Shown: positions 26,872-64,000 of the stretch, piece after piece
How the letters are laid out: each line of letters starts with the position of its first letter
Position numbering within the stretch: position 1 is the first letter of the stretch
NCBI GenBank assembly: GCA_903901225.1
Contig: CAIUQE010000049.1
Span: forward strand, 5,003-69,002
Length of the DNA stretch: 64,000 nt
Reading direction: 5' to 3'
Source of the DNA: Candidatus Omnitrophota bacterium
GTDB taxonomy: Bacteria > Omnitrophota > Gorgyraeia > Zapsychrales > Fredricksoniimonadaceae
The notes under the pieces: model-generated
Databases searched by the model: none
Told to the model about the DNA's origin: nothing
Seen by the model: only the letters and a program-made list of their open reading frames with translations
Position numbers and translations under genes: made by a program

Positions 26872-26968
26872 TTCGTGTTTGCTGCGGATATGTCTGTGCA
26901 GAATTATGTTGTCGTTGGCAAGATACAAACATGTTACAACATAAAAGGATATATTTCATATTTTAGGC

Positions 26969-44070: not shown

Positions 44071-44463
44071 GTGAAAGCAACACATGTGATCCTTGTGCTT
44101 ACAAGTTTGTTACTAGTGCTTGTATTGGATGAGGTGGTAATAAGAATTTCTAGTAATTTTGTTCCAAAGTACGATATCGAGATGACGCGGCACGCTACTC
44201 TCTTAAAGGTAACGAGTTTGGATCAAGATCAAGGTTATTATCATGGAAAAAATGCCAAAGCTCATTTAATGGGAGTGGATATAGTTACGAATTCTTTGGG
44301 TTTGCGTGATATTTTTGGGAAAGACAACTGTTTAGTTTATTATAAAAAGCTTTATAAAGATTCAAACCTTGGATGGGCGCGGTGCAAAGGTGCTATGTGG
44401 GAATTGTATAATTTCTGCATGAAGAAAAAAGTTCTTGATGATTTTTATCCTGGAGTTTCATGA
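44071..44463 (+). CDS. Hypothetical small membrane-anchored protein (GTG start). Its N-terminal anchor resembles the island's SGNH-like family.
   Basis: Hydrophobic N-terminus VILVLTSLLLVLVLDEVVIRI (compare the LLEVGxRL anchors of ORFs 46126, 50864, 58423 and 59860). This is the first gene of the AT-rich island. Confidence 0.35.
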   Translation: MKATHVILVLTSLLLVLVLDEVVIRISSNFVPKYDIEMTRHATLLKVTSLDQDQGYYHGKNAKAHLMGVDIVTNSLGLRDIFGKDNCLVYYKKLYKDSNLGWARCKGAMWELYNFCMKKKVLDDFYPGVS

Positions 44464-44563
44464 TCTAAGCGATTTTTATTCGTTTTAACGGTAGCATGAG
44501 CGGGTTGGGGATTTTATCAATATAAGATCGATAAGGGACTGCTGGAATAAGGTTTTTTGAAAT

Positions 44564-46129
44564 ATGTCGACAAAAAGACCGGGACATTTCTCTGGCGAAG
44601 TGAAGAAAATATTTTCCGGTGATATTTATCTGGTCTTGATCTTATTCATGGCCGTGGCGCTGCGATTTTATGGCATCCAGAATAAAGGATTGTGGGCGGA
44701 TGACGCGTATGGCGTAAGCTTTATTTCCTATCCATGGCATGATCTGTGGGGCCATCGTTATCTTAACCGGCCGCTATATTTTGTTTTTTTGAAACTGTGG
44801 AGTGGTTTATTTGGTGTTGGGGAATTTTCTCTCCGATTCCCATCTGTTGTTTTCGGTGCGCTTTCCGTGCCTGCCTTATATCGTCTGGGGAATATGCTTT
44901 TCGATAGGAAGACCGCTTTGATCGCGGCATTCCTGCTCGCGGTTTCGCCGTTTCATATCTACTGGTCTCAAGAAGTCCGCAATCTTTCGCTCGCCGTCCT
45001 CTTATTCCTGGTCAATATGTGTTTTTTCTTTAGTTTGATCAAGTTTAAGGAAAAGAAGCATTATCTTGGACATGCGGTCAGTGGCATTGCTTTATTTTAT
45101 GCCCATCCGATGGGGTTGTATTTGATGCCTCTCCAATATTTATTTTGCCTGCTGGCGTTCGATAAAACCCGATTGCTCAATGACCTAAAACACTGGATCA
45201 TTTTATTGGTAGCCATGTTGCCCGTTATTTTTCTTTGTTTGGATGATCACGGCAAAAACATGTTTGTTTATTTGCACAGGTCACTTTTCCAAATATTCGA
45301 GGCTTTTAATTTTGGCGGACCTTGTCAGGCGCATGGCCAGTCTGGTTTTTTGATCCCTGCGGGCCAGCTTGTTATTCCCCGGGTGCTTGATGTTCTGTTT
45401 TTATGCTTCTTTTTCTTGGGGTTTAAGATCTTGCTCGAGAGAGGAAGGTCGCCTGATAACAAAGATGTTCGTAATAAAACAATATTTTTGTCATTGTGGC
45501 TGGCGATCCCGCTCTTGTTCCCGTTTTTTTTATTGAGGCATACTGTTATTGCTTTGCCGGCCTATTATTTGATCGTGGCCTTGGGTTTTGCTTCTATCAG
45601 GAACAGGGGAATTTTCATGATGGTTTTTATCATAATATCGGTTCCCTTGGGCTTTGCGTTACGCAATTATTATCATCTTGGGAGTGCAAGGGTTTCTTGG
45701 AGAGAGGCGGGGCCCTATGTGCATAGAAATATTCAAAAGAATGATGTGGTTGTATTCGTTCCCACGGATCAGATGCCGCCTTTTTTCTATTATTTTAGTG
45801 ATAAGCCAGATGGGAAAGTGATCAAGTATATTGACAGAAAAGGATATTGGACAGGAAGTGGTTTTAAGCGTCAGTTTTGGGTCGCAGATAATCTTTATGT
45901 AGGGGTTGATCTGTTCGCAGAAAAAGTTTTTATTAATGCAAACCCGTTGGCCCTTTTCGCACAACAGAAACGAAGTGTATGGCTTGTGATATCGCCATAC
46001 TGGTTTGGCGTGGATCCGGGAGTTATTCAAACGTATTTTGAACAATATTACAGCCAGGATTCACGCATGATCCTGGATTATAATGGTGTCGAAGTGCGTC
46101 ATTATCAGCCAAAGGCCGGTGTAAATTGA
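44564..46129 (+). CDS. GT-C fold membrane glycosyltransferase (ArnT / GT39-GT83 dolichyl-phosphate-mannose-protein mannosyltransferase-like)
   Basis: About 11 TM helices, with the PMT/ArnT N-terminal motif region ...WADDAYGVSF...RPLYFVFLKLWSGLFG.SEFSLRFPSVVFGALSVPALY... It is paired with a GT2 polyprenol-phosphate sugar transferase downstream. Confidence 0.7.
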   Translation: MSTKRPGHFSGEVKKIFSGDIYLVLILFMAVALRFYGIQNKGLWADDAYGVSFISYPWHDLWGHRYLNRPLYFVFLKLWSGLFGVGEFSLRFPSVVFGALSVPALYRLGNMLFDRKTALIAAFLLAVSPFHIYWSQEVRNLSLAVLLFLVNMCFFFSLIKFKEKKHYLGHAVSGIALFYAHPMGLYLMPLQYLFCLLAFDKTRLLNDLKHWIILLVAMLPVIFLCLDDHGKNMFVYLHRSLFQIFEAFNFGGPCQAHGQSGFLIPAGQLVIPRVLDVLFLCFFFLGFKILLERGRSPDNKDVRNKTIFLSLWLAIPLLFPFFLLRHTVIALPAYYLIVALGFASIRNRGIFMMVFIIISVPLGFALRNYYHLGSARVSWREAGPYVHRNIQKNDVVVFVPTDQMPPFFYYFSDKPDGKVIKYIDRKGYWTGSGFKRQFWVADNLYVGVDLFAEKVFINANPLALFAQQKRSVWLVISPYWFGVDPGVIQTYFEQYYSQDSRMILDYNGVEVRHYQPKAGVN

Positions 46130-47127
46130 AAAGCATCCTTTTAAAAGTCAGTCTTATTCTTTTGGTTATAATCATTTCATTTCTATGCCTGGAGTGTTGC
46201 CTGAGGTTGTTCCCTTTGAAGCGGTCTGCATATCCGATTGATGCTTTTGAGTATGATGCCGCGTGTATGGTGAGTTTCAAGAAAGATCTGAACCGTTTCA
46301 TAACTACGGATTATCAGCAAGAACTTCATACAAATATGCTGAGGACGGTAAACTTTCAAGAAGATTTCTCCGGTTATCAGGATTTAATATTTGCTTTGGG
46401 AGATTCTTACACACATGGGACGGGTTTGCCTGTTGACGCTGCCTATCCCTTTCAGCTAGATCTAATGTTAAATTTTAATAACGGAGTTTATACAAAGAGA
46501 TACGGCGTTGTAAATTTAGGCCATGATGGGATAGGCGGAAAACAAGCGCTCTGTATCCTTAAGAAATACTCAGCCTGCCTTAAAAACCCAAGATTTATTT
46601 TATATCAGGGGTGTGATAATGATTATATTGATGATTTTGTCTATTCAGAATTAGCTCAAGTTATGCCTTTTTCTGGGAATCCTCGTGTCACCGGGGTCCT
46701 GCAGTGGTTTGTGGAGCATTCTGAAACCGTTGCTACTTTGTATAAAGTGTATTTTGGTCATTACAGGAATCAAATCGCAAACCATATTCGATTTTCTAAT
46801 AGGGGGGCCTTGCAGGAGCCTGTGCTTAATGAATTGAAAGCATTGGCGGATACGTTGAATGCCAGGCTCATTATTACATGGGCGGATATTTACTCTGAAG
46901 ATGCCTATTATTGGGTAAGATCCTGGGCAGAAAAGCATGACGTATTGTTTGCCGACTGGGCAAAGGGCGTTAAGTCAACGGAACATGAGTTATCAGGTAT
47001 TCCCTTGAAGAACCATCATTCTGCCGGGCATTACAGGACTTGGGTGAACTATATTATTGCAAGATCATTTGAGGATAAGATTAAACAGGTCAATGATCAA
47101 GTATTAACTGGTAATAAGGGCCTTTAA
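46126..47127 (+). CDS. SGNH/GDSL-like hydrolase family protein, N-terminally membrane-anchored (TTG start)
   Basis: Anchor LILLVIIISFLCLECCLRLF, and a GDS-block ALGDSYTHGTGLP. Confidence 0.6.
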   Translation: MKSILLKVSLILLVIIISFLCLECCLRLFPLKRSAYPIDAFEYDAACMVSFKKDLNRFITTDYQQELHTNMLRTVNFQEDFSGYQDLIFALGDSYTHGTGLPVDAAYPFQLDLMLNFNNGVYTKRYGVVNLGHDGIGGKQALCILKKYSACLKNPRFILYQGCDNDYIDDFVYSELAQVMPFSGNPRVTGVLQWFVEHSETVATLYKVYFGHYRNQIANHIRFSNRGALQEPVLNELKALADTLNARLIITWADIYSEDAYYWVRSWAEKHDVLFADWAKGVKSTEHELSGIPLKNHHSAGHYRTWVNYIIARSFEDKIKQVNDQVLTGNKGL

Positions 47128-47873
47128 TGGATCTGAGCGTCATTATTCCTGTTTATAACGAGGCATCAAGCATCCGGCCCCTCTATGAGGAGCTCAACAG
47201 GGTGCTCCCAGAGCTCTTCGGGCTTAATTATGAAATTATATTTATCAATGATGGCAGTGAAGACGCGACGGCTTCGCAAGTCGCGGGGGTTATGAAAAAC
47301 GATAGTCGTGTATATTTAATATCATTTACAAGGCACTTTGGGTTAAGTGCCGGGTTAGCCGCAGGGTTTGAGTTTGCCAAAGGTGAAGTGTTCGTTTCCA
47401 TGGACGGAGATCTTCAACATGATCCTCAAGATATTCCCAGGTTGTTGCATGAATTGCATAAGGGTTATGATCTGGTGTGCGGCAATAGAAAGATGCCCCG
47501 GTACACGTCATTTACAAGAAATTTATGCTCGCTTTCTGCAAACTACATCGGGCGGATATTTTTTGGAGTGCCTATCCATGATCTTAGTACGACGTTCAGG
47601 GCTTACAGGTCTGCCACGCTGAAAAGCCTGCTGATATTCAATGGTGCTCACCGGTTTATCCCCGTTCTGGCTTGGATGAATAATTTTAAGATCAGTGAAG
47701 TTGTCGTTTCTTATAGATTAAGGCAACACGGATATTCGAAAGTTCGGATCATTCCGCGGTTATTCAAGGTTGTATATGATGCCATCTTGATCAGGATTAG
47801 TTTTTTTTGTGTTAAATCTTGCAGGGGCATTTTCTTCAAGAAAGTCCAATATGACATTCAATACAAACATTAA
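47127..47873 (+). CDS. GT2 family glycosyltransferase, polyprenol-phosphate sugar synthase type (ArnC/DPM1-like)
   Basis: VIIPVYNEASSI..., DGSEDAT, and the DxD region SMDGDLQHDP. 248 aa. Confidence 0.8.
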   Translation: MDLSVIIPVYNEASSIRPLYEELNRVLPELFGLNYEIIFINDGSEDATASQVAGVMKNDSRVYLISFTRHFGLSAGLAAGFEFAKGEVFVSMDGDLQHDPQDIPRLLHELHKGYDLVCGNRKMPRYTSFTRNLCSLSANYIGRIFFGVPIHDLSTTFRAYRSATLKSLLIFNGAHRFIPVLAWMNNFKISEVVVSYRLRQHGYSKVRIIPRLFKVVYDAILIRISFFCVKSCRGIFFKKVQYDIQYKH

Positions 47874-47926
47874 ACGGGCTCTGTGAGCGCGCATTGTTTT
47901 TTAGTGGTAAATGGGCCAGGTGAATA

Positions 47927-49417
47927 ATGCTAAAGATTGGTTTCTTTTGTCCTGGGTATGAGAGTTTGGGAATCGAGTTTCTTTCCGCCTCGTTATGCCG
48001 GCAAGGGTTTGATACGAAACTTTTTTTTGATCCTGTTTTGTTCTCTGAAAGCAACTTCATCGATCAAGCATGGTTAGCGCATTGTTTTTCATTTCGTTGC
48101 AAGATCCTTAAGGATTTGAAAGAATATTCTCCTGATATGGTTTGTTTCTCTGTTATCAGTGATAATTATCAATGGGCTTGCCGTTGGGCTAAGGATGTAA
48201 AGGCAGCAACAGGGGCGCGTATTATTTTCGGAGGGATACATCCCACATCAGTTCCGGAGAATGTTATTCATGAACAATATGTCGATTATATTTGTCTGGG
48301 GGAGGGGGATGGGGCTTTGGTTGAGTTAGCCCGTGCCATGGCTAATGGCGGCGACGATACCGGCATCCGGAATATATGGAAAAAACAGGGACATGAAATT
48401 TATCGGAATCCTTTGCGGCCGTTGGTCAGTGATCTGGATTCTTTGCCTTTTCCTGATAAGGGAATCTTTTATAAAGCGTATCCGATCTTTCGTGATGGAT
48501 ATTTAACAATTACCTCGCGGGGCTGTCCATATTCATGCGCGTATTGCTGTAATAATGTCTATCATGAATTGTATAAAAGCGACTCTTCATATTTTCGTCG
48601 AAGAAGTGTCGGGCATGTGATGGCGGAATTAGAATTGGCTAAGCAGTGCTATAACCCTCGTTATATTGCTTTCGCCGATGATTGTTTCAATCATCGTGGG
48701 CCGTGGTTGCAGGACTTTCTCCAGCACTACCGCCATAAGGTCGCACTGCCGTTTTCTTGTTATTTGTATCCCGACATGGTTGATGAAGATCAAGTGCGCC
48801 ATTTAAAGGAGGCCGGATGTTTCAAGGTGCAGATGGGGATGCAGGTTATTTCTCAGGAGAAGCGCAACCGCATTCTTGGCAGGCGCTCGTCACAGGATAA
48901 TATTGCCCGTGCCATCGATCTTTTTCGTCGCTATGATATTTTTGTTGTGTGTGATGCTATTTTTGGATTTCCGGATGAAACCGAAGATGAGCTGGCTCAG
49001 CTAGCTCGATTTTATATTGATCATCCACCGGACCATTGCGAGAACTTTTGGCTGCGTTATTATCCGGGGACCGAGATAACACGTTCGGCGCTGGCAAAGG
49101 GATATATTGATGAGCAGCGGTATGCCGCCATTGAGTCTGGAGCACTAAAGTTTGGTCTTTGCAAGCGTCCGGAACAGCCTGTTGGCACAACGTATGCATA
49201 TCAGATCAGGATGCTGTTGATGCTTTATCCGTTTTTTTCTTATAATATGAGGGAATGGTGGCTTGAAAAGAGGCGATATCGTTACATTCCAGTTATTTCT
49301 TCGATGTTAATGTATGTTTTTGTTCGTTTGTTGCATCATCCGCCGTTAGATTTGAATTCCCAGAGGACATGGCGACGGTATGTATATTTCATTAAACTGA
49401 AGTGTTTTGGCGTATGA
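47927..49417 (+). CDS. B12-binding domain radical SAM protein (class B rSAM, probable methyltransferase)
   Basis: N-terminal cobalamin-binding Rossmann-like segment (GYESLGIEFLSASLCRQGFDT...GGIHPT). rSAM motif RGCPYSCAYCCN. Confidence 0.8.
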   Translation: MLKIGFFCPGYESLGIEFLSASLCRQGFDTKLFFDPVLFSESNFIDQAWLAHCFSFRCKILKDLKEYSPDMVCFSVISDNYQWACRWAKDVKAATGARIIFGGIHPTSVPENVIHEQYVDYICLGEGDGALVELARAMANGGDDTGIRNIWKKQGHEIYRNPLRPLVSDLDSLPFPDKGIFYKAYPIFRDGYLTITSRGCPYSCAYCCNNVYHELYKSDSSYFRRRSVGHVMAELELAKQCYNPRYIAFADDCFNHRGPWLQDFLQHYRHKVALPFSCYLYPDMVDEDQVRHLKEAGCFKVQMGMQVISQEKRNRILGRRSSQDNIARAIDLFRRYDIFVVCDAIFGFPDETEDELAQLARFYIDHPPDHCENFWLRYYPGTEITRSALAKGYIDEQRYAAIESGALKFGLCKRPEQPVGTTYAYQIRMLLMLYPFFSYNMREWWLEKRRYRYIPVISSMLMYVFVRLLHHPPLDLNSQRTWRRYVYFIKLKCFGV

Positions 49418-49498
49418 AGGATTTATTGTCGTATTACTTGAATTGCAGGATAAACGGGCCGTTTTGTTCTAAACATGTATCGTTTGAAAGTGAGATCG

Positions 49499-50863
49499 AT
49501 GGCACGCGATAAAAAAATTGAAGTTGATTTGTTGATCCTGGGGGCGGGGTGGAGTGGACTGCTTGCTGCGTTATTATATTCAAGAGAAAAGAAAGGCAGT
49601 GTTCTAATCCTGGAAAAAGAAGCATTGTTTGGCGGTCTGGCGCAGACGATGGATATCCAGGGGTTCAAAGCCGATATCGGTGGGCATGCGCTTTTCTTCA
49701 AAAAAAAGGAGAATATTTCCTTTCTTAAGGAAATCATGCGCGAGGATATTTTGATTTTACGCACGAGAAAGGCCAGGATTTATATCGAAGGGAAGTATCT
49801 TCATTACCCTCCTAATCTTGATTTTGTTTGGAAATTCAACAAGAAATATTTATTGGGCATCTTGTTTGATTTGTTTAGGTTTAGATCAGGCAAGAAAATA
49901 TCAAATTTTGAGGATTGGGTCAAATTTCATTACGGTGAGACGCTTTACAGACTAGTATTTAAGGAATATTCTCAGAAAGTTTGGGGCCAGCATTGCGCCG
50001 GGCTGTCTTATTCCTGGGCTGAAAACCGCATAGGCAAGGATGGTTTGCTTAATTTCTTTTTGAATTATTTTTTTAAAAAGAGTACCGTAAAAGAAAGAGA
50101 TAAATGCTTTTATTATCCCCAGCTCGGGATAGGTTCGCTGGTTACGGCTTTGCAATCACGCTTGAGCTGTGATGTACAAATGACGACAGGTGTCAGTCTG
50201 GTCGGCTTTTCCATGGATGGCGCTCGGCTTTCTTCCCTGCGATATCTTTCGGAGGGTAATACGCACGAAGTTAACTTTAAGGAGATCATCTCAACGATTC
50301 CATTAACTGAGCTGGTGCCGGCTATTCCTGATATTCCTTCGGTCATTGTTGAAGAAGCAAAAAATGGAATAAGGTATCGGAGTTTGATCATGGTTTATCT
50401 TATTATCGACAAGCCTATTGTTTCTGACTGGTCCTGGTGCTATTTTCCGTCCGAAAAGTTTATATTTTCTCGAATTCATGAGCCAAAGCTTTGGAGTGAA
50501 TCTTTGGCTCCGGAAGGAAAAACGCTATTAAGCGTCGAAATATTTTGTGATCATATGGATAGTCGTTGGAATATGGATGACGCGTTGATCATTGGGAAAG
50601 TGAAGGATGCCCTGAAAGTAGTCGGATTGCTGAGCGTTGAAGACAGCTTTGTTCATGCACAGATCATGAGAGTCAAATATGCCTACCCTTTGCTATATAG
50701 TGGGTTTGAAGTACCGCTTTCCCGTGTGAAGGATTGGTTGAACAATTATATCAATTTGCATCTGGCGGGAAGAAACGGGACGTCTTCGTATTTTGACATG
50801 GAAGATTGTCTTGACGATGTCAAGAAGGTAGTGCGCCGGTTAATTGATAAGGGGGCTAATTAA
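49499..50863 (+). CDS. FAD/NAD(P)-binding oxidoreductase (amine-oxidase / PPOX / UDP-galactopyranose-mutase-like fold)
   Basis: The dinucleotide-binding motif LILGAGWSGLLAA comes immediately after the chosen start MARDKK. Confidence 0.65.
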   Translation: MARDKKIEVDLLILGAGWSGLLAALLYSREKKGSVLILEKEALFGGLAQTMDIQGFKADIGGHALFFKKKENISFLKEIMREDILILRTRKARIYIEGKYLHYPPNLDFVWKFNKKYLLGILFDLFRFRSGKKISNFEDWVKFHYGETLYRLVFKEYSQKVWGQHCAGLSYSWAENRIGKDGLLNFFLNYFFKKSTVKERDKCFYYPQLGIGSLVTALQSRLSCDVQMTTGVSLVGFSMDGARLSSLRYLSEGNTHEVNFKEIISTIPLTELVPAIPDIPSVIVEEAKNGIRYRSLIMVYLIIDKPIVSDWSWCYFPSEKFIFSRIHEPKLWSESLAPEGKTLLSVEIFCDHMDSRWNMDDALIIGKVKDALKVVGLLSVEDSFVHAQIMRVKYAYPLLYSGFEVPLSRVKDWLNNYINLHLAGRNGTSSYFDMEDCLDDVKKVVRRLIDKGAN

Positions 50864-52141
50864 ATGATCAGAGGCAGCATGAGAAGAATATTTGTTTTTT
50901 TTATTGGAATAATCACGGCGTTGTTCTTGTTGGAGGTTGGCACAAGACTTTTTGGTCATATTTACCAGATGAATCGCAGTATTTCCGTTCGCCCGTTGCT
51001 GCAAGGCCAGTCCAAGCCTTTTATTATTTTATGTTTAGGGAATTCTTATACTGCTGGCGATGGTGCGCTTCCTCACATGAGCTATCCGGCACAGTTAGAG
51101 CGCATGTTTGCGTCGCGAATAAAGGATAAAGATGTTTTGGTTATTAACGAAGGAGTCGGGAATCAGAATACGGCTGAATTACTAAGGGCCTTGAAGTCAA
51201 ATATTAAGACATACCACCCTGAACTTATCATTCTTCAAACGGGTCAACCCAATAGTTGGAATTATTTGAAATATACCGACTACTTAAGAAGAGGCAAGAA
51301 GGACGTAACTTTTCTTGAACAGCTTAGTTATTATTTGAGTGAATTCTTGCATGAGAGCGTCAGCTACAGGCTTTATAGTTTGTTTCGTTATAATGGAGCC
51401 CATGACTTTCTCTCTTTCACTTCGGGGTTTGAGAATGAAAAAAAGTATCAGAAATTCGTAAAATTCAGAAAGGAAAGGGAAAACGCTGGAAACTACGCGG
51501 CTGTGGATCACGCGCAGATGGTTGAAGCTTTGGATTTATTTATGAAAGCGATAAAAGCCCACCCGGGGCATCCGCAAAATTATTTTGAAGTAGCGTTCCT
51601 TTATAGAATTCAGAATAATTATAAGGAAGCGGTGAAATGGTATTTGAAAGCATATGATGTTGCCTTGGCGAGTGACTGGCGTCCGATGTTATTTCAAGCA
51701 TCTAAACGTATCAGAGACATTCGCTATATGGATAAAGGTTTGCAAATAAATAAAGAAATCAATGAATTTGTATCTTTAAAACCAAATCAAAGAATTAATT
51801 TTATTGGTTTAGAAGAGTCGGATGTTTCTGAATGGGTGATGTCGGATATTAAAGAAGTTGTCAGGATTATTCAACATGAAAAGATCGTGTTAATTATACA
51901 AAATTATCCCAGAGCCTTCCCTGTTAATGTGGTTTTGTCAACAATAGCCAAGGACTTAAAGTTGCCTTTTGTGGATAATTATGACATTTTTAATGGAAAA
52001 ATAGCTCAAGGGATTGCTGAAGAAGAATTGTTCGTTCCCGATAATCATTGTAGTGCCAAAGGTTATGGGGTGATAGCAGAAAATTTGTTTAATAAAATTA
52101 TGGAAGAGGGATTTCTTAAAGTGGTTGATAAAAAACGATGA
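50864..52141 (+). CDS. SGNH-like protein paralog A (TM anchor, GNSYT block, TPR-like middle, conserved C-terminal ...HC..GYG... segment)
   Basis: MRRIFVFFIGIITALFLLEVGTRLFG...ILCLGNSYTAGDGA...SYPAQLERMF. It shares this architecture with 58423 and 59860. Confidence 0.65.
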   Translation: MIRGSMRRIFVFFIGIITALFLLEVGTRLFGHIYQMNRSISVRPLLQGQSKPFIILCLGNSYTAGDGALPHMSYPAQLERMFASRIKDKDVLVINEGVGNQNTAELLRALKSNIKTYHPELIILQTGQPNSWNYLKYTDYLRRGKKDVTFLEQLSYYLSEFLHESVSYRLYSLFRYNGAHDFLSFTSGFENEKKYQKFVKFRKERENAGNYAAVDHAQMVEALDLFMKAIKAHPGHPQNYFEVAFLYRIQNNYKEAVKWYLKAYDVALASDWRPMLFQASKRIRDIRYMDKGLQINKEINEFVSLKPNQRINFIGLEESDVSEWVMSDIKEVVRIIQHEKIVLIIQNYPRAFPVNVVLSTIAKDLKLPFVDNYDIFNGKIAQGIAEEELFVPDNHCSAKGYGVIAENLFNKIMEEGFLKVVDKKR

Positions 52142-52188
52142 TGCCTAAGAATTAATGGTGGCGGATTAATACAGCGATGCCGTAGTGT

Positions 52189-56855: not shown

Positions 56856-56919
56856 TGTAAAAAACTCATTATTACCCATAAAAAGCATATAATTTTTTAT
56901 ACTTTAGAGGTGATGAAAC

Positions 56920-58038
56920 ATGCGGTTAATTGCTTGTACGTTCGGTTGCTTGACAACCAGCATTAAAAAACTATTCCTGCTTTATAGACTGGGATTAGCC
57001 AGGATGACGTTTTTGAAATTGTTTCGTGTGATCGTGTACGTGTATCGGACAAAGATCCTAAGAGTAGAATGTCCCGGAGCTATTATCATAGGTCTTACAT
57101 ACCGCTGTCAATGTAAGTGCGTCCATTGTTCTGTCGGTCTTTATTCTGTTGAACCTGAGCATGAAATGAGCGTTGATAAAATAAAATCATTGTTGAATCA
57201 GATTGTGAAACTTAACATCCCTAAAGTTAATTTCTTTGGCGGTGAACCGCTGCTTCGAGGAAGAGATTTAGTGGCGCTTGTTCAATATGGGAACGATTTA
57301 GGTCTGCATATTTCCGTAGACACTAATGGAATTGCATTGGCAGAGGGATTTTCCAGAGAATTAAAGGAGGCAGGGATAAACAATATAAATATAAGTGTTG
57401 ATAGTGCGGACAGGAATATTCATGACAATTTAAGGGGTTTTGAGGGGGCCTTTGACAGCGCGATGACAGCGATAAAGAATTGCCTTAATGAAAGAATTCC
57501 CTGTGTAATTTCAACATATGCTTCTAAAAGAGCCATATATTCCGGAGATTTGAACGAGATAATAACTTTGGGCAGAAGAATGAAAGTATCTGCCGTTAAA
57601 ATATTGCTTCCTATCATGTCCGGCAGATGGGCGCATAGTGAGTGTGAACGATTGAGCCAGGAAGAAAGGAAGAAAGTGAATGACATGCTTGACCCAGGAT
57701 TTGTGTATTTGGAAAGTCCTTTGTTTAGTGTGAAGTCGGACAAGAAAATATGTGAAGCTTTGGATAAGAAAATGGTTTATATTTCGCCCCATGGGGATGT
57801 CCAGGCTTGTTACGCCGTTCCATTTTCCTTTGGTAATATCAATAATGAAGCTCTTCATGCAATACTGGCAAGAATGTGGTCTAGTGAATTCTTTTGTAAA
57901 ATTGGCAATGATCACGAATGTGTTATGAATAATCCGCATTTCAGGAAAATCGTAGGGCCTGAATTGGATAAAGCCTCCGGCTTTCCTATAAATTATCAAA
58001 AGATAGATACGGCCTGCCAGGGTTGTACCAAAATTTAG
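56920..58038 (+). CDS. Radical SAM / SPASM-domain protein with a ~55-aa hydrophobic N-terminal extension
   Basis: rSAM motif LTYRCQCKCVHCSVG (C-x3-C-x2-C). C-terminal Cys-rich SPASM-like region ...GDVQACYAV...IDTACQGCTKI. It is a paralog of 61136-62161. Confidence 0.75.
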   Translation: MRLIACTFGCLTTSIKKLFLLYRLGLARMTFLKLFRVIVYVYRTKILRVECPGAIIIGLTYRCQCKCVHCSVGLYSVEPEHEMSVDKIKSLLNQIVKLNIPKVNFFGGEPLLRGRDLVALVQYGNDLGLHISVDTNGIALAEGFSRELKEAGINNINISVDSADRNIHDNLRGFEGAFDSAMTAIKNCLNERIPCVISTYASKRAIYSGDLNEIITLGRRMKVSAVKILLPIMSGRWAHSECERLSQEERKKVNDMLDPGFVYLESPLFSVKSDKKICEALDKKMVYISPHGDVQACYAVPFSFGNINNEALHAILARMWSSEFFCKIGNDHECVMNNPHFRKIVGPELDKASGFPINYQKIDTACQGCTKI

Positions 58039-58046
58039 ATCAAAGG

Positions 58047-58139
58047 TTTGTGGCACACGTTTTGTATATTAATCCTGGGGCAGAATGTTTGGGAGTTGAA
58101 TATTTTACGGCAGTTCTCAAGAAAGAAGCCGTAAGGTGA
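58047..58139 (+). pseudogene. Remnant of the 5' end of a B12-binding radical SAM gene (about 30 codons: FVAHVLYINPGAECLGVEYFTAVLKKEAVR*)
   Basis: It is homologous to the N-termini of ORFs 62176 (MSRVLFVSNPYENLGIEYMSSVLRRSGHQV) and 47927 (MLKIGFFCPGYESLGIEFLSASLCRQGF). It sits in the position that the intact paralog occupies after the second rSAM/SPASM gene. The same frame continues to 58310 with weak similarity to a B12-rSAM C-terminus (...RLFK...). Confidence 0.5.
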
Positions 58140-58422
58140 CAATTCTTTTGGATGCTGATTTTTAGTCATTCGTTTATGTATAGGCGTGGCGTCAGGATAA
58201 TGCGTTATTGCTGGCTAATACGGCTATTTAAGAGAAGTCGGATCTTATTTGTTACCCCTTCTTGTCTGACCATTGTGGTTGGTCATCTTCCGACATTGTG
58301 GACACAATGAGTCGATTTGCTTTTGCATAAAATGAAGAATTAAAAAGAAACGGGAATTATTGTTTTTTGCGCAAAGTGAAATATTAACCGCAGTGTATGA
58401 AATGAAAAATTACTAAAATTTT

Positions 58423-59740
58423 ATGTTTTTATCAAAGTCATTAAAAAATTGCGTACAAATTCTTTTTATCTTTTTTGTTGGAGTTATTGCCGCTCTATTT
58501 TTATTAGAGATTGGTTTACGATTATGGAGTTTTACATATCAAAAGAGTCGGCGAGTTCCTGTGCATCAGGGTGTAGACATGCACATTGAAAAGCCGTATA
58601 TAATACTTTGTTTGGGAAATTCTTATACTGTTGGCGTTGGGGCACCTTTGAACAAAAGTTATCCTTCTCAGTTGCAACAGTTATTGAATAACCGGATAAA
58701 GGGTAGAGGCATTCTTGTTATAAATAAGGGGGTTGTTGCACAAAATACTGCAGAACTATTGATCGACTTGAAGTTGATTATTCTTGAATATCATCCAGAT
58801 CTTGTAATTCTTCAATCTGGCCAAGCTAATCAGTTTAATAATTTAAAATATACAAATTATTTGAGGAGAAAAGAAAAAAGCCTATCTTTTTGGAATGCGA
58901 TCAATTATTTTTGTTTGGAATTTTTCCATGAAAGTCGTGTTTATAAATTAATTAGAATTTTTAATTATGACAAAAAATTGCGCGTAGCGTCTGTTGGTTC
59001 TTCATATCAACAAAATGAGAAATATTTAAATGCAGTGGCATTTATTGATACTTTATTAGATCGGGTCGCGTTTTCATATACGGATCAACTGAAGATTCAA
59101 GAAGCGCATAAAATATTTAAAGATGGGATTTTAAAAGAACCTGGAAACCCGCAGAATTATGCTGAAATTGCTTTTATTTATGGGATTCAAGGGGACTATG
59201 GCAAATCTTTTTACTGGCATAATATGGCACTTAATGTTGCGCGAGCGTCTCATTCAAGGGATTGGATAATTGGAGAATCACGGTGGATCCGAAATATTAA
59301 AAAATGCTCACGTTTATATGTTTTCAATCCAATTTTTAAACATTTAGACAATTCTATTTGTAACTATATTTTTAGCGATCTTAAAAGGCCGGATAAAGAT
59401 TTCTTGCTTGTTCCTTTAGAAGATATCGAAATTATTCAATGGATTGAATTTGATCTTAAGGAAATTATTGGAATTCTTGAAGATAGACATATTAAATTGA
59501 TTATTCAGGATTATCCTGTATTTGATAATGTAAATGTTGTTTTATCAAATATCGCTAATGAATTTCACTTGCCATTTGTAAATAATTATAAAATTTTTCA
59601 AGCAAAATTGCAGAAGGTGTGCCTGTAAATAATTTATTTGTTCATGATAAACATTGCAATGCTGAGGGTTATGGCCTTATGGCTAGAAATGTACTTGATA
59701 AGATTGCAGCTGAAGGGTTCCTTAAAAGTCATATTAATTG
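58423..59740 (+). pseudogene. SGNH-like protein paralog B. It is disrupted by a -1 frameshift in a T5 run near 59596-59600; the C-terminal ~45 codons continue in another frame to the TGA at 59738-59740.
   Basis: The six-frame ORF ends ...NNYKIFQAKLQKVCL* at 59628. The shifted frame reads ...SSKIAEGVPVNNLFVHDKHCNAEGYGLMARNVLDKIAAEGFLKSHIN*, matching paralog A (...IAQGIAEEELFVPDNHCSAKGYGVIAENLFNKIMEEGFLK). Confidence 0.6.
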
Positions 59741-59859
59741 ATTTTTTTGTTATCGCAAAAATATTTTTTCAGAGTGGGTTCTTTTTATTGATTATATAAA
59801 ATTTTTTTTGCATCTACTGGATATTGCATGAGAAATTATATAATTGCTGGTAACACGCG

Positions 59860-61146
59860 ATGAATATGGTAAGAAGAATTTTTGTATTTTTTGCTGGAGT
59901 TTTTTTAGCTCTTTTCTTGTTGGAGGTCGGGCTAAGATTGACGGGGTTTATTGTTCAGCACAAGGCAAATATTTGCAACATGCGTGTAGGTAAGAACATC
60001 AGCAATCCGTATGTTGTATTGTGTTTGGGAAATTCGTATACCAAGGGAACTGGAGCGCCGCCGGAGATGAGTTATCCGGCGCAACTGCAGCGCATGTTCA
60101 TTGAGAAATTTAGGCTTTCAAACATTCTTGTAATTAATAATGGGATTGGGGGGCAAAATTCAACAGAATTATTAAGAGAGTTACCGGAGAATATAAGAAA
60201 ATTTAATCCCAAGCTTATTGTTCTTCAGACGGGTCAGGTTAATAAATGGGATCATTCGGGCTTTACTGATTATTTAAAAAGAAAAAATAAACAACAATCA
60301 TTTGCAAGGTTGATTGCTTATCGTTTATCCGAATATATTTATCAATGCCGTGTTTATAAACTTTTTATTTTATTTTGTAGCCAGATAACTACTAAGTTCA
60401 ATCATCCTGCGGCATCTTTAAGCTATCGATCGGGAAAGGAGTATATTAAAGCTAAGGAATTCGCAGATCATGCATTAGCCAATTTATTATTGAAAAATTC
60501 TATAAAGATGGATCAATTAGAAGCTCAGAAAGCGCTTGATATATTTACTAATGCGATGAAGGTTGATCCAGCGTTTTCTGATAATTACATATCGGCGGGC
60601 ATTATTTATAGATTGCAATCTAATTATGCAGAAGCATTGGAGTGTTTCTTTAAAGGCGTAAGTATTGGATTGCCAAATGATCATTATAAAATTTACGGGT
60701 ATCAACAGATCCGGGATATTAGAATGATTTTTAAGGGGAAAAACAATTCTGAGATAAATAAGAAAATAGAAATTTTCATTTCAAAATACAATCGGGAGAA
60801 TCTTAATGAGGATTTTAATCTATTTTTTTTAAGTGATAGTGATGTTTCTGAATGGGTAGAATCAGATATCCGAGAAATTGTCAAAATTATTAGACGGGAT
60901 AGAATTGGATTAATTTTGCATGATTACCCTTTGTGGGATATAGAGAACGCGACTTTGTTGGCTATTGCAGATGAGTTAAGAGTGCCTTTTGTTAGTAATT
61001 TCAAGGTATTTCAAGAGAAAATCTCTCTGGGGATGGCAGAAGAGAGTTTGTTTGTATTGGATGGACATTGCAATGGAAGAGGGTATGGATTAATGGCGGC
61101 GAATGTATTTAATGAAATTGTCAGAGAATACTACTATGAGAAATAA
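59860..61146 (+). CDS. SGNH-like protein paralog C
   Basis: MVRRIFVFFAGVFLALFLLEVGLRLTGF...VLCLGNSYTKGTGAPPEMSYPAQLQRMF...LDGHCNGRGYGLMAANVFNEI. Confidence 0.65.
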   Translation: MNMVRRIFVFFAGVFLALFLLEVGLRLTGFIVQHKANICNMRVGKNISNPYVVLCLGNSYTKGTGAPPEMSYPAQLQRMFIEKFRLSNILVINNGIGGQNSTELLRELPENIRKFNPKLIVLQTGQVNKWDHSGFTDYLKRKNKQQSFARLIAYRLSEYIYQCRVYKLFILFCSQITTKFNHPAASLSYRSGKEYIKAKEFADHALANLLLKNSIKMDQLEAQKALDIFTNAMKVDPAFSDNYISAGIIYRLQSNYAEALECFFKGVSIGLPNDHYKIYGYQQIRDIRMIFKGKNNSEINKKIEIFISKYNRENLNEDFNLFFLSDSDVSEWVESDIREIVKIIRRDRIGLILHDYPLWDIENATLLAIADELRVPFVSNFKVFQEKISLGMAEESLFVLDGHCNGRGYGLMAANVFNEIVREYYYEK

Positions 61147-62161
61147 ATTTAAGTTATTTCTAAATTTTTTATATTTATTTGGATTTATATTCAGGATCAT
61201 CCGGTGGAAATCATTGTCCAGGTTCTTTCTGTTCTTTCTCAAACACAGCATATTCAGGCATAAAATACCTGGCTTTGCGATCTTGGCACTCACTTATAAA
61301 TGTCAAAGTCGTTGTGTCCATTGTTCAGCAGGGCTGTTGAAATCCAAAAGAAGTGAACTGGATACTGAGCAATGGAAACGAGTACTTAATGATTTGACAG
61401 CCATGGGGGTTCCTCGGTTGCATCTTAGCGGAGGGGAGCCGTTGCTGAAAGACGGGATTGAAGAGATCGTTAGGTATGCTTCTTCCATGGGGATGGTTGT
61501 TTTTCTTGAGACCAATGGTTATCTTCTGGATGAAAGTACTTTGTGGCGACTCAAGAAGGCAGGGGTCAGCAGTATTGACATAAGCCTGGATAGCGTTGAA
61601 CCTGAGGTTCATGACAGATTGCGGGGTTTGAAAGGTTCGTTTGTTAAGGCGATCGAAGCGCTAAAGTTATGCAGCAAATTGAATATCCCGTGCATGATCT
61701 CTACCTATGTGACGCATGAAAGAATATTGTCGGGTGATATTCAAAAACTTTTTTTATTGGGTAAACAGCTCAACGCATCAGTTATAAGGATATTATTGCC
61801 TCAGCCATCCGGAAGATGGTTGATTGACCCGCCGGCAAAGTTGGACCGTGCTGATAAGATGCGGTTGCGGAGCAGTTTTATTAATTTTCCTGTATTAGAT
61901 CGGACAGATACCCCGATTTGTCCTGTAAAGAGAAGATATGCGATCTTTATCGGCCCTGATGGTGAAATGGGTTTTTGTTCGCATGTGCCGGTTTCTTTTG
62001 GGAGTGTTCTTGACGAAAGTATTGAACATATTCTCGATAGAATGGGGAATAGCCCATTATTCAGTGATAATCTGGGTTGTTATGTTAGCAACTCCGACTT
62101 TAGGTCAAAATATATTCTTCCCGCCCTTGAGTCCGGTAAAGACTTTCCGGTAAGATTTTAG
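61136..62161 (+). CDS. Radical SAM / SPASM-domain protein (paralog of 56920), with a hydrophobic N-terminal extension
   Basis: LTYKCQSRCVHCSAG rSAM motif. C-terminal Cys-rich ...GEMGFCSHVP... region. The start was chosen at ATG 61136, which overlaps the upstream stop (an alternative is 61103). Confidence 0.75.
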   Translation: MRNKFKLFLNFLYLFGFIFRIIRWKSLSRFFLFFLKHSIFRHKIPGFAILALTYKCQSRCVHCSAGLLKSKRSELDTEQWKRVLNDLTAMGVPRLHLSGGEPLLKDGIEEIVRYASSMGMVVFLETNGYLLDESTLWRLKKAGVSSIDISLDSVEPEVHDRLRGLKGSFVKAIEALKLCSKLNIPCMISTYVTHERILSGDIQKLFLLGKQLNASVIRILLPQPSGRWLIDPPAKLDRADKMRLRSSFINFPVLDRTDTPICPVKRRYAIFIGPDGEMGFCSHVPVSFGSVLDESIEHILDRMGNSPLFSDNLGCYVSNSDFRSKYILPALESGKDFPVRF

Positions 62162-62175
62162 TCAGGCATCATATT

Positions 62176-63714
62176 ATGAGCAGGGTTCTATTTGTCAGTA
62201 ATCCTTATGAAAACCTTGGCATAGAATATATGTCGAGTGTTTTACGCCGCTCCGGGCATCAGGTTGCCCTCGTCATTGACCCTTCCCTTTTTTTAAATCC
62301 GTATCATTCCAATAGGGTGTTAAATAAGCTCTTTTGTTGTACTGATGTTATTTTGAAAAAAGTTGAAGATTTTTCACCGGATATGATCTGTTTTTCTGTT
62401 GTAACGGATACGTATCAGTGGGCGTTAGGTTTGGCTAAATCCATAAAAATCAGGTTCGATATACCTGTTGTTTTTGGAGGGATTCATGCGACCGTGGTCC
62501 CTGAATTGCTCCTTGCTGAAAGTTGCATTGATTATGTTTGTGTAGGCGAGGGGGAACTGGCTGTCCTGGATCTTGCTGACAGGATTTCAAAAAAGGACGA
62601 TTGTCAGAGTATTTCTAATATTTGGACCAGAGGTCTCGAAGGTATTGTTCGGAATCCGCCCAGGCCTGTTATTGATGATCTCGACATCCTTCCATTTCCG
62701 GATAAAGGTATCTATTATTCAGAGAACAACGTTTACAAGGATGAATATTTTATAATGACTGGAAGAGGGTGTCAGTATTCTTGCTCATTCTGTTGTAATC
62801 AAATATTGATCAAACAGTATGGTATGAATTATGTGCGCAGGCGTTCTGTAGACAATGTGATCCAGGAACTTCTCTGGGCGAAGAAAAAGTACCCCTTTAA
62901 GTTTGTGTGGTTTATGGATGACAACTTTTGTTTCAGCATCGACTGGATCAAAGAATTCGGTCGCGCGTATAAAAACCACATTGCTCTCCCCTTTTTTTGT
63001 TACGCACATCCTAATAACATGTCCATGGAAGTGGCGGCATTACTTAAAGATGCAGGTTGCTCAGAAGTTGCCATCGGTGTGGAGAGCCTGAACGCCGACA
63101 CGTGTAAATTTGTTGACAGGGTTTCCGAAAAGAAGATTGTTGCCTGCGCTATCCGTGCGCTGCGTTTTCATGGGATCAGCTCTATAACAGAAAATATCCT
63201 GGGGTTTCCCGGCGAAGGAGAGGAGGATCTGATACGTCTTGTAGAATTTTACAGCGTAGAAAGGCCGGATCTCGTGGTATTTAGCTGGCTGAAGATATTC
63301 CCCGGAACAAGGATATTGAAAGTTCTTAGTGATAATGGAGCCATAAGTTGTGAGCAATTGAAAGATATCTCCGAAGGAAACGATAAGTCTTTGGCTTTAG
63401 GCGGCAATTGTACGGATGGAAAGATATTTCGAACGGCGGCGTGCCTGCTTGTCCTTGTCCCTTTTTTGCCAAGAAAATTTGTTGTATTTTTGGTCAATAC
63501 ACGGCTATTTAAATTGTTGGGTGTGTTAAGCCCTGTCGTATTATTGCGTGTGCTAAGAATATTTAAGAGTTTTTTTATAATCATAGGGAAGACACATGAT
63601 TCCGGCTTGAGGGTGAATTTAAGGATTTATAAATATTATACTTTTAGGATCATAAAAATAAAATGCGTACGAACAATACGTACCTGGTTTGGCATGTTCG
63701 GAGCGGTTAGATGA
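62176..63714 (+). CDS. B12-binding domain radical SAM protein (paralog of 47927)
   Basis: MSRVLFVSNPYENLGIEYMSSVLRRSGHQV...GGIHATVVPE B12-binding-like segment. rSAM motif TGRGCQYSCSFCCNQ. Confidence 0.8.
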   Translation: MSRVLFVSNPYENLGIEYMSSVLRRSGHQVALVIDPSLFLNPYHSNRVLNKLFCCTDVILKKVEDFSPDMICFSVVTDTYQWALGLAKSIKIRFDIPVVFGGIHATVVPELLLAESCIDYVCVGEGELAVLDLADRISKKDDCQSISNIWTRGLEGIVRNPPRPVIDDLDILPFPDKGIYYSENNVYKDEYFIMTGRGCQYSCSFCCNQILIKQYGMNYVRRRSVDNVIQELLWAKKKYPFKFVWFMDDNFCFSIDWIKEFGRAYKNHIALPFFCYAHPNNMSMEVAALLKDAGCSEVAIGVESLNADTCKFVDRVSEKKIVACAIRALRFHGISSITENILGFPGEGEEDLIRLVEFYSVERPDLVVFSWLKIFPGTRILKVLSDNGAISCEQLKDISEGNDKSLALGGNCTDGKIFRTAACLLVLVPFLPRKFVVFLVNTRLFKLLGVLSPVVLLRVLRIFKSFFIIIGKTHDSGLRVNLRIYKYYTFRIIKIKCVRTIRTWFGMFGAVR

Positions 63715-63720
63715 TGCCAC

Positions 63721-64000
63721 ATGATTGAAGTAGTCCCTTTGACCGATGTGCAGGATGCATGTTATCCGGATTTGGACAGCAGTCATCTCCCGTACTGTTA
63801 TGAAAAATCCTGGATTAATATGTTTCGACAGGTTTTTCCTTATGAACTGAAAGGTTATGGACTTCGTGTTCATGGCGAGCTTATAGGATCTTTCATTTAT
63901 GTTGTGATGAAGTCACGGTTCTGGGGGAATCGGATCATTTCTTTGCCTTTCAGCGATGAAGGAGGGATCGTGCTTCGCGACTTTGGTAAGTTGACACCTT
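63721..64000 (+). CDS. FemAB-like / GNAT-fold acyl- or aminoacyl-transferase (exosortase-locus FemAB-related type), 3' end beyond the window
   Basis: The open frame from ATG 63721 reads MIEVVPLTDVQDACYPDLDSSHLPYCYEKSWINMFRQVFPYELKGYGLRVHGELIGSFIYVVMKSRFWGNRIISLPFSDEGGIV.... The ...ISLPFSD.GG motif is typical of the FemAB-related family. Confidence 0.4.
   Translation, partial: MIEVVPLTDVQDACYPDLDSSHLPYCYEKSWINMFRQVFPYELKGYGLRVHGELIGSFIYVVMKSRFWGNRIISLPFSDEGGIVLRDFGKLTP

Follow-up and report, generated by a model that had tools for sequence, protein, structure and literature searches.

Hardly any of the abundant Omnitrophota and Elusimicrobiota have been cultured. Many are regarded as host-dependent or predatory nanobacteria, whose surface chemistry probably decides attachment and recognition. 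How such a surface is built, and how the genes for it are obtained, are the questions raised by a low-GC (guanine plus cytosine) block, hereafter the island, in a 64,000-nt stretch of DNA from a Candidatus Omnitrophota bacterium (GCA_903901225.1, contig CAIUQE010000049.1, positions 5,003 to 69,002 of the forward strand), which we call the window. The island starts behind a small PilZ gene at about 44 kb and combines envelope-glycoconjugate genes with five radical S-adenosylmethionine (SAM) enzymes in one block. It is a mobile or variable surface cassette, most likely acquired or replaced by recombination with a lower-GC member of the same phylum. We consider it fairly probable that the cassette makes amino sugars on a lipid carrier, tailors them and exports them to the cell surface, following the logic of the Arn, Lgm and PpgS-Rv3779 systems; the single steps are much less sure.

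Composition, boundary and extent of the island

The GC content in 2-kb windows was 0.55-0.59 over 30-44 kb of the window. Beyond that point, the segments at 44-52, 52-57, 58-61 and 61-64 kb had values of 0.41, 0.45, 0.33 and 0.41, respectively. Overall, the island has a GC content of about 41% (33-47%), against 55-59% before the PilZ gene. The drop near 44.0 kb that an initial annotation of this DNA had estimated by eye was thus borne out, and the check proposed there, windowed GC and codon usage, showed a sharp step: from 0.51 to 0.36 between 43,800 and 44,300 in a 200-bp profile. For GC content at third codon positions (GC3), 21 core genes ranged from 0.648 to 0.786 and 16 island genes from 0.251 to 0.524; these ranges are disjoint, and the fall from core to island is 0.30. 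The step lies in the gap after the PilZ gene, where the boundary had been placed.

43567-43923: PilZ gene (PilZ domain match), last core gene before the island
43924-44070, no strand: left boundary, a 147-nt intergenic gap after the PilZ gene, at the GC step and the end of synteny with relatives
L001 17832-17943 (window-equivalent 70,007-70,118): assembly stop after the last PMT_2 gene

All 16 island open reading frames (ORFs) in the window are on the + strand and are separated by short gaps or overlap. A second contig, L001, agrees with the window without a difference for 11,825 nt and extends the island 6.1 kb past 64,000. The island therefore reaches at least window-equivalent 70,118, about 26 kb in total, so that of the extent first assigned, 44071-64000, the start stands but the end does not. 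Below, window genes are named by their start coordinate and L001 genes by their L001 coordinate.

At the left boundary, no flanking repeat and no promoter or terminator signal was found above chance. The tRNA and Rfam scans were empty, and no integrase or transposase domain was detected by Pfam among the island proteins of the window, in agreement with the earlier remark that no such marker was visible.

Recurrence of the cassette in relatives and its likely origin

The closest named homologues of the flanking fumarase, 73-76% identical, are in Candidatus Omnitrophota. Three Omnitrophota relatives, with fumarases 75-76% identical, share with the window a nine-gene upstream order: BATS-type radical SAM, Pyr_redox, methyltransferase, chorismate-binding, response regulator-HD, citrate synthase, peptidase M17, fumarase and a PilZ-like protein of about 120 amino acids (aa). 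The small PilZ gene always follows the fumarase in these relatives (53-54% identical; L085 11401-11760, L086 11406-11777). Behind it, one relative has a gene for a 1290-aa protein and then transhydrogenase genes, another has hypothetical genes and secretin/type II secretion genes, and the third contig ends. Because gene content after PilZ differs from relative to relative, the synteny break coincides with the island start, and the presence/absence comparison suggested at the outset shows that the block is not conserved core at this position. Two features of a classical genomic island, deviant composition and absence at the same site in relatives, are therefore present.

In GCA_015232235.1, one of these relatives, a homologous cassette lies on a separate contig (L005) and has a GC content of 0.476, against 0.481 in the core. 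Core proteins of the window were 48-88% identical to those of L085/L086 (median about 72%), and cassette proteins were 27-56% identical to the L005 cassette. Homologous cassettes occur in genomes with GC contents of 0.33-0.72 and track their hosts. The genes of the cassette are thus not low in GC by nature, which argues that the block is foreign to its present chromosome.

The cassette recurs in several arrangements. The best comparator is an Omnitrophica contig (L088): for about 20 kb, at identities of 39-67%, its genes follow those of almost the entire island, apart from a single local rearrangement. They run PMT_2, 46126-like, glycosyltransferase family 2 (GT2), flavoenzyme, B12-binding radical SAM, deacetylase, GT2, 53851-like, 55191-like, two SPASM genes, B12-binding radical SAM genes and a 14890-like GT-C gene. 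Three loci (L005, L006, L046) have a common right-hand order of SPASM, B12-binding radical SAM, FemAB-like, PaaK-like and deacetylase genes, and Elusimicrobiota loci share 7-10 of the cassette families (8-10 in L007, L018, L050 and L068). DegT aminotransferases and sugar epimerase/dehydratases are also found in homologous cassettes. Since the cassette recurs in Omnitrophota and the host belongs to Omnitrophota, any transfer was most likely within the phylum. Horizontal acquisition, as first proposed, is thus supported by composition and the synteny break, but the block is not a one-off, the cassette being a recurring one in Omnitrophota/Elusimicrobiota. The variation in GC among sub-blocks (0.31-0.47), together with gene relics (see below), argues for stepwise mosaic assembly.

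Some observations weigh against acquisition. All 18 conspecific contigs examined (18/18) carry the island directly after the PilZ gene, with no presence/absence polymorphism. The other hallmarks of a classical island, an integrase or transposase, a tRNA target and direct repeats, were found neither on the left side nor inside. Low GC could in part be due to the AT bias that is common in surface-glycan loci rather than to recent transfer. Moreover, three independent assemblies from different samples (L001-L003) end at most about 110 nt after the last PMT_2 GT-C gene, probably at a repeat or strain-variable junction.

These points bear on the alternative of vertical descent from an Omnitrophota ancestor, with low GC and divergence caused by local rearrangement and by relaxed or diversifying selection at a locus for surface glycans. 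Such a history would suit the many homologous cassettes in the phylum, fixation in the conspecific contigs and the lack of mobility genes or repeats; the passages available from a preprint also present hypervariable polysaccharide cassettes as a normal Omnitrophota feature (10.64898/2026.06.07.730766). It does not readily explain why GC3 falls by 0.30 with no overlap between core and island, why the relative's cassette is at the GC of its own core and on another contig, why homologous cassettes follow their hosts from 0.33 to 0.72, or why sub-blocks of different GC and gene relics point to a mosaic. We therefore regard vertical descent as unlikely and favour recombination within the phylum.

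The hypervariable cassettes of complete Omnitrophota genomes, as described in those passages, are about 25 kb long and vary between strains and species (10.64898/2026.06.07.730766). The passages differ from our case in that they do not mention this gene set or radical SAM content, and the island is not polymorphic. A literature search (DUF3473; B12-binding radical SAM with glycosyltransferase and deacetylase; FemAB with deacetylase and exosortase; DPANN/Omnitrophica) found no description of the cassette. A radical SAM cluster with nitrogenase paralogues, known from Elusimicrobia, was set aside, there being no Nif-like genes in the window, L001, L005, L006 or L088.

Gene content

Pfam identified in the window a GT-C gene of the PMT_2 family, two GT2 genes, a NodB+DUF3473 deacetylase, a flavoenzyme, genes for SGNH proteins with tetratricopeptide repeats (SGNH-TPR), five radical SAM genes and a gene for a polytopic membrane protein. 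This domain content agrees with the switch to envelope-glycoconjugate functions described in the initial annotation, with the five radical SAM enzymes alongside. Its gene list mostly held, with corrections to the number of B12-binding radical SAM enzymes, the identity of the flavoenzyme and of the polytopic protein, and the integrity of 58423. Gene families are duplicated within the island at 19-43% identity, and the island consists roughly of three modules, each with a GT-C, a radical SAM and a GT2 and/or deacetylase gene.

Glycosyltransferases

The island and its extension in L001 hold two GT2 genes and four genes of the GT-C type (two PMT_2, two without Pfam family).

47127-47873, + strand: GT2 of the polyprenyl-phosphate sugar synthase type, 248 aa, without transmembrane (TM) segment (PF00535, 115 bits; DxD motif 'DGD' at residue 93)
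52983-53858, + strand: GT2 of the polyprenyl-phosphate type with C-terminal TM helices (PF00535; DxD motif 'DAD' at residue 92)
44564-46129, + strand: GT-C glycosyltransferase of the PMT_2 family, 521 aa, at least 8 hydrophobic segments (PF13231, 60 bits, cut-off 26)
55191-56855, + strand: predicted membrane glycosyltransferase of GT-C fold without Pfam family (AlphaFold2-type model and Foldseek)
window-equivalent 67065-68729 (L001:14890): paralogue of 55191 (sequence comparison)
window-equivalent 68731-69996 (L001:16556): second PMT_2 GT-C (PMT_2 domain)

In NCBIfam, 47127 scored best against PgfS (126 bits) and ArnC (118 bits), well short of either cut-off. For 52983 the best matches there were PpgS, AglJ and DPM-type families, and its best matches in the PDB were ArnC (E 2e-13), DPMS (1e-11) and GtrB (9e-8). 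Equivalog level was not reached for ArnC (118 and 54 bits, cut-off 529), PpgS (79, cut-off 370) or ArnD (21, cut-off 382). The PMT_2 protein 44564 has the motif 'WADDAY' in its first loop and gave no PDB match by sequence search.

The protein 55191 was previously called a polytopic membrane protein, which it is; structure prediction adds that it has a GT-C fold. Its true start is probably Met17 or Met24 (55239 or 55260). It has no Pfam or NCBIfam match, and its family profile hit in the PDB only a GPI-mannosyltransferase, with a non-significant E of 0.08. The AlphaFold2 model was of good quality (pLDDT 85.8, pTM 0.87), and the top 27 Foldseek matches in the PDB were all GT-C proteins (STT3, PglB, AglB, DPY19, AftA, ALG9/12), with E down to 1.6e-8. 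Against oligosaccharyltransferase and DPY19 structures the TM-score was about 0.5, with E of 1e-8 to 1e-5 and 8-12% identity. All 20 homologues compared keep Asp58 of the first external loop. These results suggest that 55191 is a GT-C glycosyltransferase by fold, and that 55191 and its paralogue represent a new, structure-supported GT-C family without Pfam entry.

Deacetylases, ligase, FemAB-like transferase and flavoenzyme

52189-52986, + strand: cytoplasmic NodB-type deacetylase with DUF3473 (PF01522, PF11959; TIGR03006, 164 bits, cut-off 276)
window-equivalent 66175-67005 (L001): second DUF3473 deacetylase (TIGR03006, 233 bits, cut-off 276)
63721-64000, + strand: FemAB-like transferase of GNAT fold, first 93 codons, cut by the window end
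window-equivalent 64785-66095 (L001:12610-13920): PaaK-like adenylate-forming ligase, 436 aa (family profile)
49475-50863, + strand: flavoenzyme resembling UDP-galactopyranose mutase (Amino_oxidase, NAD_binding_8)

The two NodB+DUF3473 deacetylases lack signal peptides and TM segments and should therefore act in the cytoplasm, with a lipid-linked sugar as putative substrate. The second one also matches ArnD weakly (21 bits, cut-off 382). The stop of 52189 overlaps the start of 52983, and the genes 52189, 52983 and 53851 (52189-55242), which overlap by 4-8 nt, are translationally coupled.

The FemAB-like gene is complete in L001 (355 aa, window-equivalent 63721-64788). It matches Acetyltransf_6 and TIGR03019 (91 bits, cut-off 260), and its family profile matches FemX (E 2e-4). 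A profile of the ligase built from 7 homologues matched PaaK phenylacetate-CoA ligases (E 1.7e-38), and its invariant residues fit the core motifs of the ANL family (SGGTxG, YxSTE, YRTGD, C-terminal Lys). As the ligase and the FemAB-like gene adjoin the second deacetylase, an N-acetyl group may be swapped for another acyl or aminoacyl group. The set suggests N-acyl exchange on an amino sugar, a theme at least as prominent here as C-methylation, and this deacetylase-ligase-FemAB module is a new element.

The gene 49475, formerly listed as an FAD oxidoreductase, does encode a flavoenzyme, but one best described as like UDP-galactopyranose mutase: these mutases were its only PDB matches with a named function (E 3e-14). 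Its best NCBIfam match was PRK07208 (247 bits, below cut-off).

Radical SAM enzymes

47927-49417, + strand: B12-binding radical SAM enzyme (class B), paralog 1 (PF02310, 49 bits, and PF04055; CPYSCAYC at residue 200)
62176-63714, + strand: B12-binding radical SAM enzyme, paralog 2 (PF02310, 73 bits, and PF04055; CQYSCSFC at residue 199)
53851-55242, + strand: AprD4/HpnJ-like radical SAM enzyme (PF04055 only; CPYACDYC at residue 205)
56920-58038, + strand: radical SAM enzyme with SPASM/twitch-type C-terminal domain, paralog 1 (PF04055; PF13186, 26.3 bits, cut-off 21.5)
61103-62161, + strand: radical SAM enzyme with probable SPASM/twitch-type domain, paralog 2 (PF04055, 94 bits; SPASM, 21.1 bits, cut-off 21.5)

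Both 47927 and 62176 (35% identical) have the CX3CX2C motif and N-terminal B12 domain of class B, and cobalamin binding is predicted from their sequences. The orthologues of 47927 in L024, L017 and L088 are 67% identical; the nearest homologues of 62176 are 52-56% identical and are from Omnitrophota. The profile of the B12-binding enzymes matches AprD4, CysS, TsrM, TokK and OxsB. A third B12-binding enzyme had been claimed, and this proved incorrect: 53851 has no B12-binding domain match in Pfam. Its best PDB match was AprD4 (6fd2, E 5.7e-24), and in NCBIfam HpnJ came top (111 bits, cut-off 578), with the AprD4 family at 95 bits (cut-off 500). AprD4 is the cobalamin-free radical SAM diol-dehydratase of apramycin biosynthesis, and GenK, GenD1 and MoeK5 are class-B enzymes that C-methylate sugars in gentamicin and moenomycin (PMC12931638).

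For 56920, the best PDB match was the sugar decarboxylase BlsE (E 1.4e-12), followed by GDGT-MAS (5e-10) and PqqE; the BlsE family scored 59 bits against an NCBIfam cut-off of 400 and thus did not reach equivalog level. The second SPASM-type enzyme, 61103, is 34% identical to 56920. Its start is probably at 61136, since other assemblies call a 341-aa gene, and five Cys beyond the radical SAM motif fit a twitch-like single-cluster domain.

Fusions of a B12-binding radical SAM enzyme with a 56920-like SPASM enzyme (849-872 aa) occur in several genomes (L005 6317-8908; L006 6379-8997; P0059, P0065, P0104). Although the genes are separate in the window, these natural "Rosetta-stone" fusions argue that the two classes share one pathway. 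Runs of 3-6 B12-binding paralogues were also seen in cassettes (L005 14047-21524, L020 2331-11446, L088 13724-18280), and they suggest iterative or multi-site methylation, or fast diversification of substrate specificity.

Among the relatives of the radical SAM enzymes, the best characterized are sugar-tailoring ones: AprD4, BlsE and the class that holds GenK, GenD1 and MoeK5. Membrane-bound substrates would fit, because 62176 has a hydrophobic C-terminal tail (TM-like segments at residues 422-471) and the N-terminus of 61103 is hydrophobic by eye. The hydrophobic tails could also be cited for enzymes that alter the hydrocarbon of a lipid, by cross-linking or methylation as in Tes/Mss, Hbs/Hgm and HpnP/R; the glycosyl enzymes would then decorate these lipids, and the product would be a modified membrane glycolipid instead of a carrier-linked sugar handed on to a glycan. 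Clustered SPASM and B12-binding pairs are the pattern of Hbs/Hgm, and Hbs homologues have been reported in Omnitrophota (10.1101/2023.10.20.563219); 56920 matches GDGT-MAS at E 5e-10, and TIGR04072, a 'lipid biosynthesis B12/rSAM' family, gives 92 bits with the B12-binding enzymes. However, the scores for lipid families are far below the cut-offs and do not exceed those for sugar enzymes; neither the 26 kb nor the homologous cassettes hold a Tes, Mss, Ger or fatty-acid/isoprenoid gene, and the closely associated genes encode deacetylases, GT2, GT-C, aminotransferases and epimerases. We judge modification of the hydrocarbon to be quite improbable and keep to sugar tailoring.

Sugar tailoring by AprD4-, GenK- and MoeK5-type chemistry is a matter of antibiotic biosynthesis, and the B12-binding and SPASM enzymes are hallmarks of tailoring in ribosomally synthesized and post-translationally modified peptides (RiPPs), with matches here to TIGR03975, ApyD, PqqE and SkfB. 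A secondary-metabolite cluster with a released product, RiPP-like or aminoglycoside/moenomycin-like, might thus be considered, in which the PaaK-like ligase and FemAB-like transferase could make a peptide or acyl moiety. Four GT-C and two polyprenyl-phosphate GT2 genes are, by contrast, envelope machinery, and the TM-anchored SGNH proteins face outward. Genes for a precursor peptide, protease, cyclase, exporter or resistance were not observed; for small ORFs this rests on inspection of the 58030-58430 gap only, and no systematic search for precursors was made. A released metabolite is in our view very improbable, and an envelope product remains the preferred reading.

A proposed pathway for lipid-carried amino sugars

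The scheme that follows, in which the substrates, the order of steps, the acceptor and the direction of transfer are inferred, arranges the cassette as a pathway across the membrane. The two GT2 enzymes would load a hexose, probably N-acetylated, onto polyprenyl phosphate at the cytoplasmic face. The signal-less DUF3473 deacetylases would then expose the amine, and membrane-associated radical SAM enzymes would tailor the lipid-linked sugar: the AprD4/HpnJ-like 53851 by deoxygenation or ring contraction, the B12-binding enzymes by C-methylation, as GenK, GenD1 and MoeK5 do, and the SPASM enzymes by oxidation or decarboxylation. The possibly methylated glycan or glycolipid envisaged in the initial annotation is likewise a hypothetical product. 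The flavoenzyme resembling UDP-galactopyranose mutase may also act at this stage. The PaaK-like ligase and the FemAB-like transferase would re-acylate the free amine. After flipping, the four GT-C enzymes would transfer the products to surface acceptors, and the TM-anchored SGNH proteins may add or remove O-acyl groups at the outer face.

The following points tell against this scheme. No island protein reached an NCBIfam equivalog cut-off, so that all assignments are at superfamily level. Among the ORFs of 44-64 kb and L001 there was no small multi-TM one that could serve as flippase, and the window showed neither genes for nucleotide-sugar synthesis nor one that would define the acceptor. The radical SAM enzymes also match lipid-modifying enzymes (HpnJ, GDGT-MAS/Tes, 'ladderane' B12-binding radical SAM).

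A bolder version of the scheme is conceivable, although we hold it only tentatively: the cassette might represent one uncharacterized pathway across phyla, in which a battery of radical SAM enzymes performs aminoglycoside-style tailoring on a polyprenyl-phosphate amino sugar, with N-acyl exchange by a deacetylase, the PaaK-like ligase and the FemAB-like transferase, and with an unrecognized GT-C family that places the product on the cell surface. It would cover Omnitrophota and Elusimicrobiota, with single components in DPANN, the candidate phyla radiation (CPR) and Planctomycetota, and with AprD4-like enzymes, BlsE-like SPASM enzymes and 1-8 B12 methylases, sometimes fused. If this were true, ultra-small anaerobes would carry a hyper-modified surface sugar of a new class.

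SGNH-TPR proteins and possible gene relics

46126-47127, + strand: TM-anchored SGNH-like protein, distant relative of the SGNH-TPR paralogs ('LGDSYTHG', GDS motif, at residue 92)
50864-52141, + strand: SGNH-TPR paralog 1 (Lipase_GDSL_2, 36 bits, and TPR matches; GNS nucleophile block)
58423-59741, + strand: SGNH-TPR paralog 2, frameshifted (C-terminal D-x-H block in another frame, 59604-59741)
59860-61146, + strand: SGNH-TPR paralog 3, intact (Pfam, BLASTP, motifs, alignment)
58050-58327, + strand: possible relic of a B12-binding radical SAM gene, two colinear fragments in different frames (blastx, weak)
44503-44577, + strand: possible relic of an SGNH-TPR C-terminus, 'GFLKYVDKK' (weak blastx to the 50864 C-terminus, E 0.16), just before 44564
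44071-44463, + strand: orphan 130-aa ORF with one N-terminal TM segment, GC 0.36, without Pfam or NCBIfam match

Three close SGNH paralogs and a distant member had been described, and BLASTP agrees: 50864, 58423 and 59860 are 36-43% identical, and 46126 matches 59860, 58423 and 50864 at E 3e-8 to 2e-5. One of the paralogs, 58423, is frameshifted, however. Its tail matches the C-terminus of 50864 (blastx E 2.4e-13), the shift lies near 59600, and its GC content (0.31) is the lowest in the island. Independent assemblies show the identical split, and the frameshift is therefore probably real decay and not sequencing error.

The SGNH-TPR proteins consist of blocks I-III (residues ~55-130), a helical TPR-like insert of about 250 residues and block V (~395-405, D-x-H). 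Positive residues precede the single TM helix, which argues for an N-in anchor and an outward-facing catalytic domain. The family had 180 representatives at E<=1e-30 and 1,748 at E<=1e-10 among 1.84 billion proteins, without annotation. An AlphaFold2-type model made from the three window paralogues had a pLDDT of 55, too poor for a fold search. No homologues were found in 82 comparator loci or in the L088 gene list, and the three genes are the lowest in GC in the island (0.31-0.375). They look like lineage-specific, later insertions into the cassette backbone. The distant member 46126 has orthologues in L024 and L088 (58% identical).

Two short segments look like remnants of such remodelling. 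In the first, 58050-58130 matched residues 1-27 of 62176 (E 0.015) and 58241-58327 matched residues 70-102 of 47927 (E 0.87); together with 44503-44577 it suggests that the cassette was remodelled stepwise. The first segment lies after the SPASM gene 56920, at a place where relatives carry a B12-binding radical SAM or SPASM gene. No homologue of the orphan ORF 44071 was found in the comparator loci, and 44071-44577 is probably gene debris. The ORF was also tried as a further SGNH member and rejected, as it has no similarity to the SGNH-TPR family.

Other features of the window

A second tract of lower GC lies at 12751-30043 of the window (GC 0.44-0.51 against 0.55-0.60; GC3 0.49-0.61). It holds five + strand ORFs of 704, 1263, 1511, 985 and 1024 aa. 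The 1511-aa protein has SAM methyltransferase, HD_3 and cytidine/dCMP deaminase domains and marginal PADLOC matches (mad2, dCTPase); the other four had no Pfam or PADLOC match. Possible readings are an island for nucleotide modification or defence, or giant proteins like those reported for Omnitrophota. Farther upstream, a spore-photoproduct-lyase-like radical SAM gene (2138-3478) is followed by about 1 kb (3479-4469) with a GC content of 0.51 and positive AT skew, in which no ORF of at least 150 aa on either strand and no Rfam match were found.

Comparison with known systems

The triad of a GT2, a NodB-type deacylase (in the island a candidate for cytoplasmic action on a lipid-linked sugar) and an outside GT-C is common to the island and to Arn (ArnC/ArnD/ArnT, aminoarabinose on lipid A), Bordetella LgmABC and mycobacterial PpgS/Rv3779 (galactosamine addition). 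The GT2 is present at the domain level, and the GT-C transferase is represented by the PMT_2 proteins 44564 and L001:16556 and by 55191 with its paralogue L001:14890. A dedicated flippase of the Arn type (ArnE/F, GtrA-like) was not found in 44-64 kb or L001. Unlike Arn, the island also lacks nucleotide-sugar genes of the ArnA/ArnB type, its ArnC score is 118 against 529, and it adds five radical SAM enzymes, the flavoenzyme resembling UDP-galactopyranose mutase, the ligase/FemAB-like pair, the SGNH proteins and four GT-C enzymes.

HpnI, HpnK and HpnJ add N-acetylglucosamine to a lipid, deacetylate it and rearrange the lipid-bound sugar by radical SAM chemistry (PMC13459092). This sequence of steps, from bacteriohopanetetrol glucosamine to cyclitol ether, and that of the archaeal calditol synthase Cds are like the one proposed for 52189/52983/53851. 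The island differs in its HpnJ score (111 bits against 578), its lack of hopanoid genes and its GT2 of the polyprenyl-phosphate type. HpnK belongs to a different deacetylase family from the island deacetylases.

Loci of the XrtA/PEP-CTERM type for exopolysaccharide share with the island two uncommon families, TIGR03006 and TIGR03019, side by side, and an adenylate-forming ligase. The scores are all below cut-off (TIGR03006 164/233 bits against 276, TIGR03019 91 against 260), and no exosortase domain or PEP-CTERM protein was found among the window or L001 genes. The enzymes of XrtA loci are themselves not known to have been characterized.

Like the oligosaccharyltransferases and DPY19 (STT3, PglB, AglB), 55191 has a GT-C fold with a matched C-terminal globular domain. 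It lacks the WWDxG motif and has no Pfam STT3 match, and it therefore appears to share the fold without being a member of the oligosaccharyltransferase family.

The likeness to AprD4, BlsE, BtrN, GenK/GenD1 and MoeK5 is at the domain level; the context here is envelope machinery and not an antibiotic cluster, and the substrates are presumably lipid-linked. If so, radical SAM sugar chemistry, which is known from antibiotics and from hopanoid and archaeal head groups, would extend to bacterial envelope glycans. The cassette would be a clean example of the exchange of surface cassettes within a phylum, and 52189-55242 offers a concrete, expressible three-gene unit. Set against known systems, the superfamilies of the parts and the overall logic are familiar; new are the candidate GT-C family without Pfam entry, the density and fusions of radical SAM enzymes in an envelope-glycan context, and the deacetylase-ligase-FemAB module.

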